From a virus: a stretch of 64,000 bases of DNA. The DNA lies in UHGV virus genome UHGV-0033546; one strand, given 5' to 3'. How positions within the stretch are numbered: position 1 is the stretch's first letter; each line of letters opens with the position of its first letter. Shown piece by piece: positions 2,503 through 15,146 of the stretch. The notes under the pieces are model-generated. The model was not told the origin of the DNA, ran no database searches, and saw only the letters and a list, made by a program, of their open reading frames with translations. Both the position numbers and the translations under genes were made by a program.

Positions 2503-5500
2503 ATGGCCGAGATTAAAAGAAAGTTCAGAGCGGAAGACGGTCTGGACGCAGGTGGCGATAAAATAATCAACGTAGCTTTAGCTGATCGTACCGTAGGAAC
2601 TGACGGTGTTAACGTTGATTACTTAATTCAAGAAAACACAGTTCAACAATATGATCCAACTCGTGGATATTTAAAAGATTTTGTAATCATTTATGATAAC
2701 CGCTTTTGGGCTGCTATAAATGATATTCCAAAACCGGCAGGAGCTTTTAATAGCGTACGATGGAGAGCGTTACGTACTGATGCAAACTGGACAACTGTTT
2801 CATCAGGACCGTATCAATTAAAATCAGGCGAATCAATTTCGGTTAACACTGCAGCTGGTAATGACATTACATTTACTTTGCCATCTTCTCCAATTGATGG
2901 TGATACTATAGTTCTCCAAGATATTGGAGGAAAACCTGGAGTTAACCAGGTTTTAATTACAGCTCCGGTACAAAGCATTGTAAACTTCAGAGGTCAACAA
3001 GTACGCTCAGTACTAATGACTCATCCAAAATCACAGATAGTTTTAATTTTTAGTAATCGTCTGTGGCAAATGTATGTTGCTGATTATAGCAGAGAAGCGG
3101 CAGTTGTAACGCCAGCGAGTCTTTATCAAGCGCAATCAAACGATTTTATCGTGCGTAGATTTACTTCTGCTTCAGCAATTAATATTAAACTTCCGAGATT
3201 TGCTAATCACGGGGATATCATTAATTTCGTTGATTTGGATAAATTAAATCCTCTTTATCATACAATTGTTACTACATATGATGAAACGACTTCAGTGCAA
3301 GAAGTTGGAACTCATTCCATTGAAGGCCGTACATCTATTGATGGTTTCTTGATGTTTGATGATAATGAGAAACTGTGGAGATTGTTTGACGGGGATAGTA
3401 AAGCCCGTTTACGTATCATAACGACTAATTCAAACATTCGTCCAAATGAAGAAGTTATGGTATTTGGTGCGAATAATGGAACAACTCAAACGATTGAACT
3501 TCAGCTTCCGACCGATATTTCCATTGGTGATACTGTTAAAATTTCCATGAATTATATGAGAAAAGGACAAACAGTTAAAATCAAAGCTGCTGGTGAAGAT
3601 AAAATTGCTTCTTCAGTTCAATTGCTGCAATTCCCAAAACGTTCAGAATATCCGCCTGAAACTAAATGGGTGACTGTTCAAGAATTAGTTTTTAATGGCG
3701 AAACCAATTATGTTCCAGTTTTACAGCTTGCTTATATCGAAGATTCCGATGGAAAATATTGGGTTGTACAGCAAAACGTTCCAACTGTAGAAAGAGTAGA
3801 CTCTTTAAATAATTCTACCAGAGCAAGATTAGGCGTAATTGCTTTAGCTACACAGGCTCAAGCTAATGCAGATTTAGAAAATTCTCCACAAAAAGAATTA
3901 GCAATTACTCCAGAAACGTTAGCTAATCGTACTGCTACAGAAACTCGCAGAGGTATTGCAAGAATAGCAACAACTGCACAAGTTAACCAGGATACTACAT
4001 TCTCTTTTGCAGATGACCTTATCATCACTCCTAAAAAGCTGAATGAAAGAACTGCTACAGAAACTCGCAGGGGTGTCGCTGAAATTGCTACGCAGCAGGA
4101 AACTAACACAGGTACTGATGATACTACAATCATCACTCCTAAAAAGCTTCAAGCTCGTCAAGGTTCTGAGTCATTATCTGGTATTGTAACTTTTGTATCT
4201 ACTGCAGGTGCTACTCCAGCTTCTAGTCGTGAATTAAATGGTACAAATGTTTATAATAAAAATACTAATAATTTAGTAGTTTCACCTAAAGCCTTGGACC
4301 AGTATAAAGCTACTCCAACACAACAAGGTGCGGTAATTTTAGCAGTTGAAAGTGAAGTAATTGCTGGACAAAGCCAAGAAGGATGGGCAAATGCGGTTGT
4401 AACGCCAGAAACGTTACATAAAAAGACATCAACTGATGGAAGAATTGGTTTAATTGAAATTGCTACGCAAAGTGAAGTTAATACAGGAACTGATTATACT
4501 CGTGCAGTCACTCCTAAAACTTTAAATGACCGTAAAGCAACTGAAAGTTTAAGTGGTATAGCTGAAATTGCTACACAAGTTGAATTCGACGCAGGCGTCG
4601 ACGATACTCGTATCTCTACACCATTAAAAATTAAAACTAGATTTAATAGTACTGATCGTACTTCTGTTGTTGCTCTATCTGGATTAGTTGAATCAGGAAC
4701 TCTCTGGGACCATTATACCCTTAATATTCTTGAAGCAAATGAGACACAACGTGGTACACTTCGTGTGGCTACACAAGTTGAAGCTACTGCAGGAACATTA
4801 GATAATGTTTTAATAACTCCTAAAAAGCTTTTAGGTACTAAATCTACCGAATCGCAGGAAGGTGTTATTAAAGTTGCAACTCAGTCTGAAACTGTGACTG
4901 GAACGTCAGCAAATACTGCTGTATCTCCAAAAAATTTAAAATGGATTGTGCAGAGTGAACCTACTTGGGCAGCTACTACCCTGGTAAGAGGTTTTGTTAA
5001 AACTTCATCTGGTTCAATTACATTCGTTGGTAATGATACAGTTGGGTCAACGCAGTCATTAGAATTATACGAAAAAAATAGCTATGCAGTATCGCCATAT
5101 GAATTAAACCGTGTATTAGCAAATTATTTGCCGTTAAAAGCAAAAGCTGCAGATAGTAATTTATTAGATGGTCTAGATTCATCTCAGTTCATTCGTAGGG
5201 ATATTGCGCAGACGGTTAATGGTTCACTAACCTTAACCCAACAAACGAATCTGAGTGCCCCTCTTGTATCATCTAGTACTGCTACGTTTGGTGGGTCAGT
5301 TTCAGCAAATAGTACATTAACTATTTCTAATACTGGAACAGCAACTCGATTGATTTTTGAGAAAGGACCTCAAACTGGAACAAACCCAGCCCAAACGATG
5401 ACTGTCAGAGTGTGGGGAAATCAATTTAGTGGGGAATCAGACACGACACGTTCTACTGTATTTGAAGTTAGTGATGAAACATCTAGTCATTTTTATTCTC

Positions 5501-6372
5501 AGCGCAATAAAGCCGGAAATATAACATTTAATATCAACGGTACAGTAACTCCGATAAATGTTAATGCTTCAGGAACATTGAATGCAAATGGTGTAGCAAC
5601 ATTTGGTAATTCAGTTACTGCAACTGGTGAAATTATTTCTCGAAGCGCAAATGCTTTCCGTGCTATTAACGGAAATTATGGTTTCATTGTTCGCAATGAC
5701 GGATCAGTAACGAATTTTATGCTTACTGCATCAGGTGATCAGACTGGTGGATTTAATGGATTACGCCCATTAGCTATTAATAATGCATCTGGTCAAGTAA
5801 CGATTGGTGAAAGCTTAATAATCGCCAAAGGTGCTACTATAAATTCAGGTGGTTTGACTGTTAACTCGAGAATTCGTTCTCAGGGCACTAAAACATCTGA
5901 CTTATATACCCGTGCGCCAACATCTGATACTGTAGGATTCTGGTCAATCGATATTAACGATTCAGCCACTTATAACCAATTCCCAGGTTATTTTAAAATG
6001 GTTGAAAAAACTAATGAAGTGACTGGACTTCCATATTTAGAACGTGGCGAAGAAGTTAAATCTCCTGGTACACTGACTCAGTTTGGTAACACACTTGATT
6101 CGCTTTACCAAGATTGGATTACTTATCCAACAACTCCAGAAGCGCGTACCACTCGCTGGACGCGTACATGGCAGAAAACCAAAAACTCTTGGTCAAGTTT
6201 TGTTCAGGTATTTGATGGAGGTAACCCTCCTCAACCGTCTGATATCGGTGCTTTACCATCTGATAATGCTACAATGGGTAATCTTACCATTCGTGATTTC
6301 TTACGAATTGGTAATGTTCGCATTATTCCTGACCCAGTGAATAAAACTGTTAAATTTGAATGGGTTGAATAA
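2503..6372 (+). CDS. 34: Long tail fibre proximal subunit gp34
   Basis: 1289-aa ORF, same length as T4 gp34; first gene of the 34-38 operon; GGAG RBS. Confidence 0.95.
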   Translation: MAEIKRKFRAEDGLDAGGDKIINVALADRTVGTDGVNVDYLIQENTVQQYDPTRGYLKDFVIIYDNRFWAAINDIPKPAGAFNSVRWRALRTDANWTTVSSGPYQLKSGESISVNTAAGNDITFTLPSSPIDGDTIVLQDIGGKPGVNQVLITAPVQSIVNFRGQQVRSVLMTHPKSQIVLIFSNRLWQMYVADYSREAAVVTPASLYQAQSNDFIVRRFTSASAINIKLPRFANHGDIINFVDLDKLNPLYHTIVTTYDETTSVQEVGTHSIEGRTSIDGFLMFDDNEKLWRLFDGDSKARLRIITTNSNIRPNEEVMVFGANNGTTQTIELQLPTDISIGDTVKISMNYMRKGQTVKIKAAGEDKIASSVQLLQFPKRSEYPPETKWVTVQELVFNGETNYVPVLQLAYIEDSDGKYWVVQQNVPTVERVDSLNNSTRARLGVIALATQAQANADLENSPQKELAITPETLANRTATETRRGIARIATTAQVNQDTTFSFADDLIITPKKLNERTATETRRGVAEIATQQETNTGTDDTTIITPKKLQARQGSESLSGIVTFVSTAGATPASSRELNGTNVYNKNTNNLVVSPKALDQYKATPTQQGAVILAVESEVIAGQSQEGWANAVVTPETLHKKTSTDGRIGLIEIATQSEVNTGTDYTRAVTPKTLNDRKATESLSGIAEIATQVEFDAGVDDTRISTPLKIKTRFNSTDRTSVVALSGLVESGTLWDHYTLNILEANETQRGTLRVATQVEATAGTLDNVLITPKKLLGTKSTESQEGVIKVATQSETVTGTSANTAVSPKNLKWIVQSEPTWAATTLVRGFVKTSSGSITFVGNDTVGSTQSLELYEKNSYAVSPYELNRVLANYLPLKAKAADSNLLDGLDSSQFIRRDIAQTVNGSLTLTQQTNLSAPLVSSSTATFGGSVSANSTLTISNTGTATRLIFEKGPQTGTNPAQTMTVRVWGNQFSGESDTTRSTVFEVSDETSSHFYSQRNKAGNITFNINGTVTPINVNASGTLNANGVATFGNSVTATGEIISRSANAFRAINGNYGFIVRNDGSVTNFMLTASGDQTGGFNGLRPLAINNASGQVTIGESLIIAKGATINSGGLTVNSRIRSQGTKTSDLYTRAPTSDTVGFWSIDINDSATYNQFPGYFKMVEKTNEVTGLPYLERGEEVKSPGTLTQFGNTLDSLYQDWITYPTTPEARTTRWTRTWQKTKNSWSSFVQVFDGGNPPQPSDIGALPSDNATMGNLTIRDFLRIGNVRIIPDPVNKTVKFEWVE
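3891..4944 (+). repeat. Degenerate tandem peptide repeats (about 40 aa, at least 8 copies) inside gene 34
   Basis: recurring pattern ...TPxxL..R.ATE(T/S)xxGxxxIAT(Q)xExxxGTDxT... visible in the gp34 translation. Confidence 0.7.
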
Positions 6373-6380
6373 GAGGTATT

Positions 6381-7496
6381 ATGGAAAAATTTATGGCAAA
6401 GTTTGGACAAGGATATGTCCAAACGCCATTTTTATCGGAAAGCAATTCAGTAAGATATAAAATAAGCATAGCGGGTTCTTGCCCGCTTTCTACTGCAGGA
6501 CCATACGTTAAATTTCAAGATAATCCTGTAGGAAGTCAAACATTTAGTGCAGGTCTTCATTTAAGAGTTTTTGACCCTTCCACGGGAGCATTGGTTGATA
6601 GTAAGTCATATGCTTTTTCTACTTCAAATGATACAACATCTGCTGCTTTCGTTAGTTTCATGAATTCTTTTTTAAACAATAGACTTGTTGCTATATTAAC
6701 TAGCGGAAAGGTTAATTTTCCTCCTGAAGTAGTATCTTGGTTAAGAACAGCAGGAACATCTGCTTTTCCATCTGATTCTATATTGTCAAGATTTGATGTA
6801 TCATATGCTGCTTTTTACACTTCTTCTAAAAGAGCTATTGCATTAGAACATGTTAAACTGGGTAATAGAAAAAGCACAGATGACTATCAAACTATATTAG
6901 ATGTAGTATTTGATAGTTTAGAAGATGTTGGAGCGACAGGATTTCCTAAAAGAACATATGAAAGCGTTGAGCAATTTATGTCAGCTGTTGGTGGAACTAA
7001 TAACGAAATTGCGCGTTTACCAACTTCATCCGCGATAAGTAAACTTTCTGACTACAATTTAATTCCTGGAGATGTGCTTTATCTTAAAGCACAACTATAT
7101 GCTGATGCTGATTTACTTGCTCTTGGAACTACGAATATATCCATTCGATTTTATAATGCATCAAATGGATATATTTCCTCAACACATGCTGAGTTTACTG
7201 GACAAGCTGGGTCTTGGGAATTAAAAGAAGATTATGTAGTTGTTCCTGAAAATGCAGTAGGATTTACGATATACGCACAGAGAACTGCACAAGCGGGTCA
7301 AGGCGGTATGAGAAATTTAAGCTTTTCTGAAGTGTCAAGAAATGGCGGCATTTCAAAACCTGCTGAATTTGGCGTCAATGGTATTCGAGTTAATTATATC
7401 TGCGAATCTGCTTCACCTCCGGATATAATGGTACTTCCTACGCAAGCATCGTCTAAAACTGGTAAAGTGTTTGGACAAGAATTTAGAGAAGTTTAA
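6381..7496 (+). CDS. 35: Long tail fibre hinge connector gp35
   Basis: 371-aa ORF directly after 34 (T4 gp35 372 aa from memory). Confidence 0.9.
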   Translation: MEKFMAKFGQGYVQTPFLSESNSVRYKISIAGSCPLSTAGPYVKFQDNPVGSQTFSAGLHLRVFDPSTGALVDSKSYAFSTSNDTTSAAFVSFMNSFLNNRLVAILTSGKVNFPPEVVSWLRTAGTSAFPSDSILSRFDVSYAAFYTSSKRAIALEHVKLGNRKSTDDYQTILDVVFDSLEDVGATGFPKRTYESVEQFMSAVGGTNNEIARLPTSSAISKLSDYNLIPGDVLYLKAQLYADADLLALGTTNISIRFYNASNGYISSTHAEFTGQAGSWELKEDYVVVPENAVGFTIYAQRTAQAGQGGMRNLSFSEVSRNGGISKPAEFGVNGIRVNYICESASPPDIMVLPTQASSKTGKVFGQEFREV

Positions 7497-7558: not shown

Positions 7559-8215
7559 ATGGCTGATTTAAAAGTAGGTTCAACAACTGGAGGCTCTGTC
7601 ATTTGGCATCAAGGAAATTTTCCATTGAATCCAGCCGGTGACGATGTACTCTATAAATCATTTAAAATATATTCAGAATACAATAAACCACAAGCTGCTG
7701 ATAATGATTTCGTTTCTAAAGCTAATGGTGGTACTTATTTAAATAAAGTAATTTTTAATAAAGGAATGACTGTTCCTGGTGCTGGGTCAGGTGACAACGG
7801 TATTTTTGCCGGTCCTGGTGATAATGCCACGTATGATACTACAAATATGGATATTGTTTCATGGTATGGTATCGGCTTTAAATCATCACAAGGAACAGCA
7901 GGTAGAACTGTAGTAATTAACACACGAAACGGAGATATTAGCTCAAAGGGTGTAATTGAAGCATCACAAATACGCGCAACTTCATTATCCCCAGTAAATA
8001 ATTATGACCTTACGAGAAAAGATTATGTTGATGGAGCAATAAATATTGTTACAACAAACGCAAACTCTAGGGTGTTACGCTCTGGAGACACTATGACAGG
8101 AAATTTAACTGCGCCAAACCTTTTTTCACAGAATCCTGCATCTCAACCCTCACATGTTCCGCGATTTGACCAAATCGTAATTAAGGATTCTGTTCAAGAT
8201 TTCGGCTATTATTAA
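7559..8215 (+). CDS. 36: Long tail fibre distal connector gp36
   Basis: 218-aa ORF between 35 and 37 (T4 gp36 221 aa from memory). Confidence 0.9.
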   Translation: MADLKVGSTTGGSVIWHQGNFPLNPAGDDVLYKSFKIYSEYNKPQAADNDFVSKANGGTYLNKVIFNKGMTVPGAGSGDNGIFAGPGDNATYDTTNMDIVSWYGIGFKSSQGTAGRTVVINTRNGDISSKGVIEASQIRATSLSPVNNYDLTRKDYVDGAINIVTTNANSRVLRSGDTMTGNLTAPNLFSQNPASQPSHVPRFDQIVIKDSVQDFGYY

Positions 8216-8223
8216 GAGGACTT

Positions 8224-11200
8224 ATGGCTACTTTAAAACAAATACAATTTAAAAGAAGCAAAACGGCAGGTCAACGTCCAGCTGCTTCAGTATTAGCCGA
8301 AGGTGAATTGGCTATAAACTTAAAAGACCGTGTACTTTTTACTAAAGATGACCAAGGAAATATTATTGATTTAGGTTTTGCTAAAGGCGGTAGTATTGAC
8401 GGGAATGTTATTCATAAAGGCAATTATAACCAAACTGGCGATTATACTTTAAACGGTACATTCACCCAGACTGGTAATTTTAATTTAACCGGTATTGCTC
8501 GAGTAACTCGTGATATTATTGCTGCTGGCCAGATTATGACTGAAGGCGGAGAACTTATTACAAAAAGTTCAGGTACATCACATGTTCGTTTTTTCGATGG
8601 CAATAGCCGCGAACGCGGAATCATTTTTTCTCCTGCTAATGATGGATTAACTACACAAGTAATTAACATCAGAGTTCAAGATTACAAAGCCGGTTCGGAA
8701 AATACTTTTTCTTTTAGCGGTAATGGTCTTTTCACATCGCCGGAAGTTTCTGCATGGAAATCTATGTCAACTCCCCAGATTTTGACTAACAAAGTCATTA
8801 CTAATAATAAATCTACGAGTGATTATGACATTTATTCGATGGCAGACAATGTTCCACTGTCTGAAAGCACTACTGCTATTAATCATCTACGCGTCATGCG
8901 CAATGCAGTCGGTTCTGGTATTTTCCATGAAGTTAAAGATAATGATGGAATAACTTGGTATAGTGGAGATGGATTAGATGCTTATCTTTGGTCATTTACC
9001 TGGAGCGGCGGAATTAAATCAAGCCACTCAATTTCTATCGGTTTAACACCCGGTAATAAAGATTATTCAATATTAGGACCATCTAGCATTGCTTTAGGAG
9101 ATAATGATACTGGATTTAAATGGCATCAAGACGGATATTATTTCAGCGTTAATAATGGAACAAAAACGTTTTTATTTAGCCCTAGCGAAACAACTAGCCT
9201 AAGAAAATTTGTAGCTGGATATTCTACTAATGGAACCGATTTAACTACTCCTCCGACTGAAAACTATGCTCTTGCTACTGTCGTGACATATCACGACAAT
9301 AACGCGTTTGGAGATGGTCAGACTCTTTTGGGGTATTATCAAGGCGGTAGATATCACCATTATTTTCGTGGAAGAGGAACAACTAATATTAATACCGCTG
9401 GAGGATTATTAGTTACTCCTGGTAATATTGATGTTATTGGCGGTTCTGTTAATATCGATGGTAGAAATAATGCTTCTACATTGCTATTGAAAGGTAACAC
9501 AACTGGTAGTAGTTCTGTGGATAACATGACAATTTCTGTGTGGGGTAATACATTTACTAATCCTAGCGAAGGTAATCGCAAAAATGTCATGGAAATTTCC
9601 GATGCAACTAGCTGGATGAGCTATATTCAAAGACTTACTACTGGTGAAGTAGAAATGAATGTTAACGGTTCATTTGAATCATCTGGTGTTACTGCTGGAA
9701 ATAGAGGAGTTCACACAACAGGTGAAATTTCATCTAGTGCCGTGAATGCACTCCGTATTTGGAATGCAGATTATGGGGCCATTTTTAGACGTTCAGAAGG
9801 TAATCTTCATATTATTCCAACTGCTTATGGTGAAGGCAAAAATGGTGATATTGGTCCACTTCGTCCATTTAGTATTGCTTTGGATACTGGTAAGGTTGTT
9901 ATTCCTGACTTGGATTTAAGTTATGCTTCTTTTGCCGCAAACGGTTATATTAAATTTGGCGGTCATGGCGCAGGTGCCGGCGGTTATGATATTCAGTATG
10001 TTCAAGCGGCTCCTATTTTCCAGGAAATCGATGATGATGCTATAAGCAAATATTATCCTATTGTTAAACAGAAGTTTTTAAATGGTAAAGCCGTTTGGTC
10101 TTTAGGTACTGAAATTAATTCTGGTACATTTGTTTTACATCATTTGAAAGAAGATGGTTCACAAGGCCATACATCAAGATTTAATGCTGACGGTACAGTC
10201 AATTTCCCCGATAACGTTCAAGTCGGTGGTGGTGAAGCTACTATTGCTCGTAATGGTAATATTTTCTCAGATATTTGGAAATCGTTTACTTCAGCAGGAG
10301 ACACTACAAATATTCGCGATGCGATAGCTACTCGTGTTGCCAAAGAAGGCGATACGATGACTGGCAAATTAATCGTTAAAAGAGGCTCTGACGCTATTAA
10401 CATTGCTGCCGATGAAAATGATTCTGGCTATTTACTTGGAACATCGGGTGGAGCGAATTCATGGTACATCGGTAAAGGAGGAGCAGATGACACTGCTTCA
10501 TTTTATAATTTCAAAACTACCGCAGGAATTACTCTTAATAGTGTAGGTGATATTGATTTTAATGTTAAAAATCAATCTACTGCCGCTTCATTAAATTTTT
10601 ATCGTTTATATTTAAATGGAAGACAGTGGACAGCTACACAAGGTCACGGCTATAATAATCAATGGCAAACAGAAGCCCCATTCTTCGTTGACTTTGGCGA
10701 ATCTGTTCCGAAAGATAGTTATATGCCTATAATTAAAGGAAGAAGCCAAATCATTAACGAAGGATATGCCACAAAGGCAGATTTTGGTATTATTCGATTG
10801 GGTGGAAATGCTACTTGGGGAAATGCAGTAATTCGTGTTGGTTCTGCGGAAAGCGGAGATAGCAGTCATCCTAATGCAATATTTGTGTTTCAGGCTAATG
10901 GCGATTTTAAAGCTCCGGCTGGCCTTCGTGCTGGTGTTAACTTGGGTGTCGGCACAATTCCAATATGGGGCGGAGCATCTATCGCCATCGGTGATGATGA
11001 TACCGGTTTAGTTCATGGCGGCGATGGTCGAATTAATATGTATGCTAACGCGCAGCATATTGCATCATGGGGCGCGGGCTATCAATCTCATCCGGGCCTT
11101 TGGGATTCAAATGGGGCTCTTTGGACAGAAGTTGGCAAAGCAATTATTTCTCATGGCCATTTAGTTCAGGCGAATGACAGTTATTCCACATATGTCCGTG

Positions 11201-11550
11201 ATGTTTATGTCCGCTCTGATATTCGTGTTAAAAAGGACCTTGTTAAATTTGAAAATGCTTCTGAGAAGCTTTCTAAAATTAACGGTTACACTTATATGCA
11301 GAAGCGAGGTCTAGATGAAGACGGTAATCAGAAGTGGGAACCTAATGCCGGTTTAATTGCTCAAGAAGTTCAAGCTATTTTACCTGAATTAGTTGAAGGC
11401 GATCAGGATGGTGAAGCTTTACTTCGTTTGAACTATAATGGTGTAATCGGTTTAAATACAGCTGCTATCAATGAGCATACCGCAGAAATTGCAGAACTTA
11501 AATCCGAAATTGAAGAGCTTAAAAAATTAGTTAAATCATTGTTAAAATAA
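8224..11550 (+). CDS. 37: Long tail fibre distal subunit gp37 with C-terminal intramolecular chaperone domain
   Basis: 1108-aa ORF after 36; last 111 aa (SDIRVKKDL...[15 protein letters not shown]...coiled coil) match the peptidase S74 / endosialidase chaperone pattern. Confidence 0.9.
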
Positions 11551-11554
11551 AATG

Positions 11555-11570
11555 AGGGGCTTCGGCCCCT
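11555..11570 (+). other. UUCG-tetraloop RNA hairpin between 37 and 38
   Basis: AGGGGC-TTCG-GCCCCT immediately before the gp38 RBS. Confidence 0.6.
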
Positions 11571-11581
11571 TGGAGGTTTAT

Positions 11582-12376
11582 ATGGCAGTTGAAGGACCGT
11601 GGGTAGGATGGTCTGCAAGGGTACAGACTGGAGACCCTTGGATGGCAGGAGCAGCCGTAAGATTAAGAATGGGTGTTCCGTTTTGGATGAGTAATATGAT
11701 AGGTCGATCTGTTGAAGTAATTCACACACTTGGAGCGGACCATAACTTCAATGGTCAATGGTTCCGAGATAGATGTTTTGAGGCAGGTAGTGCACCTATA
11801 GTGTTTAATATTACCGGAAATTTGGTATCATATTCTAGAGACGTTCCTTTATTCTTTATGTATGGAGATACACCTAATGAATATGTTCAGTTGAATATTG
11901 GTGGTGGCGTCCATATGTGGGGTAGAGGTGGACAAGGTGGATGGACTCATTCCGGCGGAGATGGTAATGGTCAACAAGGTGGTCATTGTATTCAAAATGA
12001 CATCGGTGGACGATTAAGAATTAATAACGGTGGAGTAATTTGCGGCGGAGGTGGAGGCGGAGGTGGTATCGCTTATCGTCCCCACTCTGGTGCAAATTGG
12101 CAAGATATTGGTGGTGGTGGAGGAAGACCATTTGGACCAGGTGGAGGCGGAGGTTATTCCGGCGGCGCAGCTTCTTATGATGGCCCAGGAGGTGGTTATA
12201 ATTATGGTAATGCTCACTCTGGACAAGGTGGTGATGCTGGCGCAAATGGACAAAATGCCTGGCATGATGGCGGTAAAGTACTAAAAGTCGGTGCTGGCGG
12301 AGCTGCTGGTTATGCCGTCATAGGGTCCGCTCCAACATGGCAAAATGTTGGAGTAATATATGGTCCAAGAGTATAA
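11582..12376 (+). CDS. 38: Receptor-recognising adhesin gp38 (T2 type, glycine-rich motifs)
   Basis: 264 aa from ATG 11582 (GGAGG RBS); the ORF-track start at 11552 lies inside the hairpin; poly-Gly blocks (GGGGGGGG, GGGGG, GGGGG) separated by short variable segments. Confidence 0.85.
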
Positions 12377-13501: not shown

Positions 13502-13776
13502 TCGAAATAATCTTCAATTTCGTAATCATGGACATAAATCATTATAGTTTTTAATACATCATCAATACTTTTTCCTGGCGCTGGAATTACATAAAAATAT
13601 CTTGCTTTTGAGAGGTCTTTATAAGTTCCAACCAAGAAATCATTATTCTCGAGATGTAGTTCTTCAACTAATTCATTAACAATTGAATGATATAGATTTG
13701 GTAGAAACTTATATAGCTTTTCTAGAATATCAATTTTGATTGTGTATTGAACCACAGACTGAGAATCAATAATCAT
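13498..13776 (-). CDS. arn: Anti-restriction nuclease Arn (McrBC inhibitor)
   Basis: 92-aa ORF next to asiA; size and position as T4 arn. Confidence 0.8.
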   Translation of the reverse strand: MIIDSQSVVQYTIKIDILEKLYKFLPNLYHSIVNELVEELHLENNDFLVGTYKDLSKARYFYVIPAPGKSIDDVLKTIMIYVHDYEIEDYFE

Positions 13777-13854
13777 AGACCTTCCCCCTTATGTTTCTGT
13801 TTGTGATTAGATTCTTTAAACGCTTTCTTCTTATCTTTATGAACAGAAGCTTTA

Positions 13855-14079
13855 TTAAAATTGTGCTTTGCGACTAAATTGTTCATAGTGTTGAATTACC
13901 TCTCTTAAACATTTGCATGTGAATGAAAACTTTTTAGCTACACCACATTCAAATATATGTTCTCTTAAATCACGTGTGTCAGTATATCCCATCTCAACAA
14001 TAAAGTGTCTTATTAGATTTTTATCTTTATCATTGAGAGAATTAAAATAATCGGATTTTGAATTAATTTCCCTGGCCAA
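13855..14079 (-). CDS. Hypothetical early protein (74 aa)
   Basis: ORF in the arn-motA block; no recognisable motif. Confidence 0.5.
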   Translation of the reverse strand: MAREINSKSDYFNSLNDKDKNLIRHFIVEMGYTDTRDLREHIFECGVAKKFSFTCKCLREVIQHYEQFSRKAQF

Positions 14080-14359
14080 ATTGAATCACCTTCAGTTGAC
14101 GTTTTAATTCTTTTATCATTTCTTCGTTCATCGCAATATAAAGATCGCGTAAAGCGGGTTTTAGCATTCCATTTACTGGAGAACTAAATGGGCACACATA
14201 ATCTTTTCCTACGAGCCTTTTAGCGAATTCCATATCACAAAACTGAAATGCTGGTTCATTGGCATAAATGCCCCAATTAGTTGACATCATTTTATTGGCA
14301 TATTCCAGTGCCTGGATTTGATTCTTAATTCCATCAATTTGAAACTTTTTAATATTCAT
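14063..14359 (-). CDS. Hypothetical early protein (98 aa)
   Basis: ORF in the arn-motA block; overlaps neighbours by a few nt. Confidence 0.5.
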   Translation of the reverse strand: MNIKKFQIDGIKNQIQALEYANKMMSTNWGIYANEPAFQFCDMEFAKRLVGKDYVCPFSSPVNGMLKPALRDLYIAMNEEMIKELKRQLKVIQFGQGN

Positions 14360-14820
14360 TAGTAAAGGTCCTCAGAGTAAAGTTCTTTTTCACTACCACC
14401 ACGTTCAATACGTACTTGTCCGGCGTAAGTTGCAATAATCATTGCTTCTTCACGTGTCCAATAATTACTATATTGGTCAATAAACCCTTGGTCATCATCA
14501 CAAACTTGTTGAGTAACTAATTGAGGTTTAACTACATCTAAAACTTCTGCCATATCTTTAGAATAATGACGAGCACCTGGAATAACAAGAGTTCGTCCAT
14601 CTTTTAGTTTAAAACGGTTGGCTGCGCAAACAATTCGTCGTTGATACTTTTGGTTTTCGTCCCAATATGCAGACTGCCAACAAATTTCAGGAACTTCTTT
14701 CAGAATATCTTCTTCTGTGCATTTATAACCATGTGCTTTAAATTTTTCAACAAGACTTTCTGGAGTTTCACGAGATAAAGGAACATTCAGCATTTTTAAA
14801 CGATTAATAAATGGGTTCAT
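14359..14820 (-). CDS. Hypothetical early protein (153 aa)
   Basis: ORF with start/stop overlap to neighbours. Confidence 0.55.
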
Positions 14821-15146
14821 TTAAACCATCCTTTAATACGCTGCCACAAAGTTTTCTGTTGAGCTTTGTTAACACCAATTGAGCGAATAACTGGTTGAGA
14901 TTCCTGGAATTCTTTATAATCAGCAAGGTAAATTTCGTAAGCCGATTGAACAAAGGTACTAATCGCTGCCATGAAGTTCTTGCGAATTCCCATAGAGGCT
15001 TCAGAACCACCACGGATGATTAAATATTTGCCAGTCTTAATCTTTACGATAGTTCCAAGATAAGCTCCATGGTACCAGATGTCCCATCCCTCTTGAGTGG
15101 GTTCTGCACAACGACGAAGTTCATTAACAATTTCTAACTTGTTCAT
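14817..15146 (-). CDS. Hypothetical early protein (109 aa)
   Basis: ORF immediately downstream of motA. Confidence 0.55.

Follow-up and report, generated by a model that had tools for sequence, protein, structure and literature searches.

The distal long tail fibre protein gp37 of a Tequatrovirus genome ends in a C-terminal domain of the peptidase S74 (intramolecular chaperone) family

This analysis concerns gp37, the distal subunit of the long tail fibre, as encoded in a 64,000-nucleotide stretch of the virus genome UHGV-0033546 (the window, to which all coordinates refer). The last 111 residues of gp37 (998-1108) very probably form an intramolecular chaperone domain at the C-terminus, assigned to MEROPS/Pfam family S74, for which chaperone activity, self-cleavage and a part in the docking of the adhesin gp38 are predicted from homologues. 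Direct observations cover the family to which the domain belongs, the motifs and fold that it shows, where it lies in gp37 and the neighbouring gene for gp38. The domain family, its presence in gp37 of T-even phages and its link to gp38 docking have all been published; the finding is thus already known, and the S74 domain of this gp37 adds no new biology.

Identification of the S74 domain

The gene and the parts of the domain discussed below, all on the plus strand, are the following:

8224-11550 (+): gene 37, encoding the precursor of the distal subunit of the long tail fibre; 1108 amino acids (aa), 119.2 kDa; assigned from the listing of open reading frames (ORFs), Pfam and relatives.
11215-11547 (+): C-terminal intramolecular chaperone/peptidase S74 domain; residues 998-1108, 111 aa, 12.4 kDa.
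11215-11217 (+): codon (tct) of Ser998, the predicted nucleophile and first residue of the PF13884 match; SDxRxK is conserved in homologues.
11230-11232 (+): codon of Lys1003, predicted to act as general base in the Ser-Lys pair and assigned from the sequence and family knowledge.
11350-11370 (+): residues 1043-1049, the GLIAQEV core motif, five positions of which (G, L, I, A and Q) do not vary among 20 homologues.
11434-11544 (+): helix at the end of the domain (residues 1071-1107), predicted to assemble into a three-stranded coiled coil on trimerisation; helix at fragment residues 99-135 of the AlphaFold2 model, with a predicted local distance difference test score (pLDDT) mostly of 92-97.

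The in-frame translation of 11215-11550 gives 111 residues (S998 to K1108) followed by a stop codon, exactly the C-terminus that the first-pass annotation had quoted when it proposed an S74-like chaperone at the end of gp37. The Pfam search run as a check on that proposal upheld it: PF13884 (Peptidase_S74, 'Chaperone of endosialidase') matched the whole of gp37 with 48.5 bits (E-value 1.1e-12) and the 111 residues alone with 54.1 bits (E-value 1.9e-14), against a curated gathering cut-off of 22 bits. In gp37 the match takes in residues 998-1057, and it covers positions 1-57 of the 58 in the profile.

Within this match, the segment Ser998-D-I-R-V-Lys1003 presents the serine and the lysine at +5 with the spacing of the family's catalytic pair, and the two residues are the predicted pair in gp37. 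The catalytic role of the serine and the lysine in S74 proteins is well established. A lysine aligned to Lys1003 was found in the S16, MyRF, 8JOV and GA-1 chains. An alignment of 20 homologues shows no variation at G-L-I-A-Q and P-E-x-V, and those sequences that reach far enough retain the SDxRxK start. The proposed Ser-Asp-x-Arg-x-Lys start and GxIAQEV core are therefore both present, the latter as GLIAQEV, and both are under visible conservation. A search with the last 136 residues returned 30 database homologues, all but the weakest of which carry the same Pfam domain; these are mostly short or partial proteins, which suffice for an alignment of conserved positions and do not amount to a census.

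With regard to its distribution, the domain belongs to a well-populated class of fibre C-termini. The 111 residues matched 31 PHROG families, which are tail-fibre families, and in the 25 of these that were listed the match ends at the end of the profile or within about 10 positions of it, with one exception; in gp37, likewise, the domain forms the extreme C-terminus. A tblastn search against phage genomes located the domain in 1158 records, including genes for T5-like L-shaped fibres as well as cyanophage and vibriophage fibres. Pfam assigns the domain automatically, and in certain public records genes of this kind are already called 'tail protein and peptidase'.

Fold of the domain and matches to solved structures

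The AlphaFold2 model of residues 973-1108 (136 aa) has a mean pLDDT of 82, with low confidence confined to the 20 residues that precede the domain. The model has two short strands in addition to a beta hairpin, a short helix that covers GLIAQEVQ and a single long helix (1071-1107), and thus shows the beta hairpin core, the short helix at GLIAQ and the long C-terminal helix that characterise the S74 fold. The heptad register is clean over the last 28 or so residues, in which position a is occupied by I, I, I, I and V, and position d by L at its last three occurrences; the terminal coiled coil anticipated by the first-pass annotation is accordingly seen both in the register and in the modelled helix.

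Comparison of the model with the PDB by Foldseek retrieved the MyRF structure 7DC3 (template modelling score 0.67, E-value 2e-6) and, with a probability of 0.99, the chaperone of endosialidase, 3GW6. Chaperones of endosialidase and of the T5 L-shaped fibre, to which the domain had been likened, were both among the four solved structures of this fold. At the sequence level, phmmer against PDB sequences found the distal fragment of S16 gp37 (6F45_A) with an E-value of 1e-45, in an alignment that covers the fibre tip as well as the chaperone domain. A profile built from the 20 homologues matched 6F45, the MyRF ICA 7DC3 (E-value 5e-8) and the tail fibre 8JOV (E-value 1e-4) significantly, and the neck appendage chaperone of GA-1 (3GUD) weakly, with an E-value of 0.46. 

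We also considered the trivial explanation that a generic coiled-coil tail happens to carry a fortuitous motif. This is excluded by the E-values and the fold search, no point was found in its favour, and its probability is negligible.

Predicted cleavage and mechanism

Two further features follow from the alignment of gp37 with its homologues:

11212-11217 (+): predicted scissile bond Arg997/Ser998, placed by the S16 site, T2 gp37 and the start of the 3GUD chain (a weak match, E-value 0.46).
8224-11214 (+): predicted mature gp37, residues 1-997, 106.8 kDa, ending in RDVYVR; the predicted docking tip for gp38.

The predicted site in this phage reads DVYVR^SDIRVKK, and the fragment predicted to be released from it has 111 aa and 12.4 kDa. 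The end of mature gp37 is placed at residue 997 because this position aligns with the S16 site, DLNVS^SDRRIKK, and with the site of the fPS phages, DVYIR^SDGRLKI. The released and crystallised 3GUD chain starts with SDERHK, which the same weak match aligns to SDIRVK of gp37.

In family S74 generally, three domains associate and nucleate the folding of the preceding triple beta-helix, after which the first serine, activated by the lysine five residues on, cuts the bond before it and the domain leaves. This mechanism was reportedly worked out by Schwarzer et al. 2007 and Schulz et al. 2010 (cited in PMC7917993, PMC7289586 and PMC12143355), and the latter are said to have shown for endosialidase that the domain is needed in cis for the folding and trimerisation of the preceding beta-helix; for the beta-helix of gp37 we infer a like requirement. 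On this basis, three still-attached copies of the gp37 domain would associate through their beta cores and terminal coiled coils, and this association would set the register for the trimerisation and folding of the preceding beta-helical fibre tip. Once the trimer has folded, Ser998, activated by Lys1003, would attack the Arg997-Ser998 bond, the 12.4-kDa domain would be released, and gp38 would then dock on the cleaved tip of gp37.

Several elements of this scheme have been described in related phages. In S16, gp37 ends in an intramolecular chaperone of 113 residues that is reported to cleave itself off between the two serines of its site, and its removal exposes the docking surface for gp38 (PMC7917993, after Dunne et al. 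2018); the same source predicts the equivalent cut in T4-like phages of Yersinia at the fPS site given above. The S74 family in general is presented as autoproteolytic in PMC7289586 and PMC12143355. The latter also states that, as in S16, those gp37-like fibres of Straboviridae that have no T4 needle carry in its place an S74 domain that cleaves itself. According to PMC3157838, gp37 of T2 and T6 is cleaved and then capped by gp38. Two other sources touch on the subject from a distance: the CkP1 paper (PMC10175313) describes a T4-type needle tip and is silent on cleavage, and the BASEL paper (PMC11990801) discusses intramolecular chaperones for T5-like fibres only. The suggestion in the first-pass annotation that the domain would explain T2-type processing and gp38 docking therefore agrees with what the S16 and T2 literature reports, but it does not stand as a new explanation, since that explanation is already in print.

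Two alternatives accept the S74 fold and differ on what happens to it. The domain might be kept in the mature fibre as a non-cleaving cap or as a platform for gp38 docking. None of the analyses run gave a computed result in favour of such retention, and in gp37 Ser998 and Lys1003 are both intact and canonically spaced. The reported fate of the S16 domain, which is 57% identical, and of T2 and T6 gp37 is cleavage, with gp38 of S16 docking on the exposed tip (PMC7917993 and PMC3157838), and for a related class of fibre with the same domain PMC12143355 reports no density for the domain in cryo-electron microscopy. We therefore regard retention as very improbable.

Alternatively, some other protease, of the phage or of the host, could cut off the C-terminus, and the domain would then serve only as an aid to trimerisation and folding. 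Processing of the C-terminus of T2 gp37 was reportedly described, to judge by its title, by Drexler, Riede and Henning in 1986 (J Mol Biol 191:267; cited in PMC3157838); this work established the processing and its title names no protease, which is compatible with an external enzyme. Against this, conservation of the Ser-Lys pair extends from phage fibres to the eukaryotic MyRF, and both S16 and the wider family are described as autoproteolytic in the literature (PMC7917993; PMC7289586). A separate protease consequently has very little probability in our view.

Self-cleavage by the S74 domain thus remains the preferred reading, and we found no evidence in this analysis that contradicts it. Three points limit this reading. 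Cleavage and chaperone function would here be carried over from homologues with 57% identity (S16) and 35% identity (T2). The residue ahead of the cut is arginine in this gp37 and serine in S16, arginine being the commoner state among the aligned homologues. Finally, the AlphaFold2 model shows a single chain of a domain that is an intertwined trimer. For this phage, we infer chaperone action, self-cleavage and the docking of gp38 on the new tip from the structure and biochemistry of S16 and the biochemistry of T2.

In practical terms, mature gp37 should be annotated as a protein of 997 residues ending in DVYVR. When recombinant fibres are made or gp38 is swapped to alter host range, residues 998-1108 should be kept in the construct and their loss from the product expected.

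The gp38 adhesin and the intergenic hairpin

Directly 3' of gene 37 lies an adhesin gene, as in T2/S16-type fibre tips, whose gp38 has an N-terminal attachment domain and a glycine-rich specificity domain:

11582-12376 (+): gene 38, encoding a T2-type tail-fibre adhesin of 264 aa for which docking on the cleaved tip of gp37 is predicted.
11553-11572 (+): C(UUCG)G tetraloop hairpin, from the sequence and an RNA fold; 8-bp stem, UUCG loop.

The product of gene 38 matches PF21721 (Gp38_N, E-value 2.4e-19) and PF05268 (GP38, E-value 1.6e-68). A mechanical reading of the ORF starts it at ATG 11552, one base past the stop codon of gene 37, and the Gp38_N match begins at residue 11 of that ORF. ATG 11582 stands five bases after GGAGG (11572-11576), and the relative Sa45lw annotates the same gene as 795 bp. 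Given that Gp38_N begins at residue 11 and that the gene of relatives has 795 bp, ATG 11582 is most likely the true start as read from the sequence, giving a protein of 264 aa.

Most of the 31-base gap between the stop codon of gene 37 and the start of gene 38 is occupied by the hairpin GGGGC-UUCG-GCCCC, whose 3' arm touches the Shine-Dalgarno sequence of gene 38. C(UUCG)G hairpins are a classic intercistronic feature of T4. The fold of the 56-nt context of this hairpin was not significantly better than that of shuffled sequences (z = -1.75).

When window positions 11215-12376 were compared with T2 positions 13601-14872, the N-terminus of gp38 was found to be unlike that of T2, which reads MAIVGVPGWIGESAV... 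An S16-like gp37 domain and a non-T2 gp38 N-terminus in a Tequatrovirus fit a modular exchange of tip cassettes. PMC3157838 notes such exchange of the fibre-tip cassette and also that subtypes of the gp37 C-terminus co-vary with those of the gp38 N-terminus.

The S16-like subtype of the domain (57% identity, against 35% to T2) in a Tequatrovirus suggests a further reading, in which the chaperone and the gp38 attachment domain would move between T-even phages as a matched cassette. If they did, the chaperone would template a docking face specific to the gp38 subtype, or the released 12-kDa fragment would have an additional role. We consider this extension very improbable; even if true, it would be an increment only, given that the co-variation has already been noted (PMC3157838).

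The gp37 locus

The remaining long tail fibre genes lie upstream of gene 37:

2503-6372: gp34; PF21560 and PF21446.
6381-7496: gp35, hinge protein.
7559-8215: gp36; PF03903.

Around the ORF at 8224-11550, the order is gp36, gp37, the gp38 adhesin and then holin T (PF11031). These neighbours identify the ORF as gp37 in a long tail fibre locus of the T2 type, with an adhesin as cap, an assignment made from sequence comparison. Pfam matches in gp37 comprise Gp34_trimer, gp37_trimer (weak, under its cut-off) and Peptidase_S74. In DNA sequence the region shares 94% identity with the Tequatrovirus phages vB_EcoM-Sa45lw and KIT03, which places this phage in that genus; the records of these two relatives name the two genes 'large distal long tail fiber subunit' and 'tail fiber adhesin'. 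The sizes and order of the ORFs, taken with the annotated relatives of the first 21 kb or so, fit a T-even genome of the ordinary type.

Residues 449-551 of gp37 (window 9568-9876) match PF21446, the trimerisation domain of gp34, with 36.3 bits (E-value 8.7e-9). Since gp34 of the window likewise contains PF21446 (residues 980-1092), the proximal and distal half-fibres have a module in common. Residues 58-126 of gp35 (window 6552-6758) match PF15711 ILEI (Interleukin-like EMT inducer/FAM3-type) with 30.7 bits (E-value 4.7e-7), just above the gathering score of 27; a match of this type is unexpected in a phage fibre hinge protein. A scan of both strands of the whole 64-kb window against Rfam at the gathering threshold yielded no family.

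Comparison with known systems

The closest known system is gp37 of Salmonella phage S16 (construct 6F45; Dunne et al. 2018, Structure), likewise a T-even gp37 with a gp38 adhesin and with the domain in the same position. The two domains are 57% identical and share the SDxRxKK start, the GLIAQEV core and the coiled-coil tail, and in both phages gene 37 is followed by a gene for gp38 with a Gp38_N attachment domain. In contrast to S16, the domain has 111 rather than 113 residues and the predicted cut falls in DVYVR^S rather than DLNVS^S, and the fibre shaft upstream is longer and different in sequence.

T2 belongs to the same genus, Tequatrovirus, and has the same locus order, g34-g35-g36-g37-g38-t. 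Its gp37 (AP018813) has 1341 aa and ends in NVYIR-SDIRLKSN..., with a PF13884 match at an E-value of 1.5e-16. Nevertheless, the identity between the two domains is only 35%, and that of T2 has about 99 aa as against 111. As the identity to S16 is higher, at 57%, the tip module of this phage is a different, S16-like subtype.

Endosialidase is the founding member of peptidase family S74. The chaperone of the K1F endosialidase endoNF (3GW6) is about 15% identical to the gp37 domain and sits on a tailspike enzyme, whereas gp37 is a fibre that receives a separate adhesin. The chaperone of the T5 L-shaped fibre pb1 (4UW8) differs in that the cleaved tip of T5 itself binds the receptor and no gp38-type adhesin is added. 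The ICA domain of eukaryotic myelin regulatory factor (MyRF; 7DC3), in turn, is not part of a virion protein, and it releases a transcription factor from the membrane of the endoplasmic reticulum.
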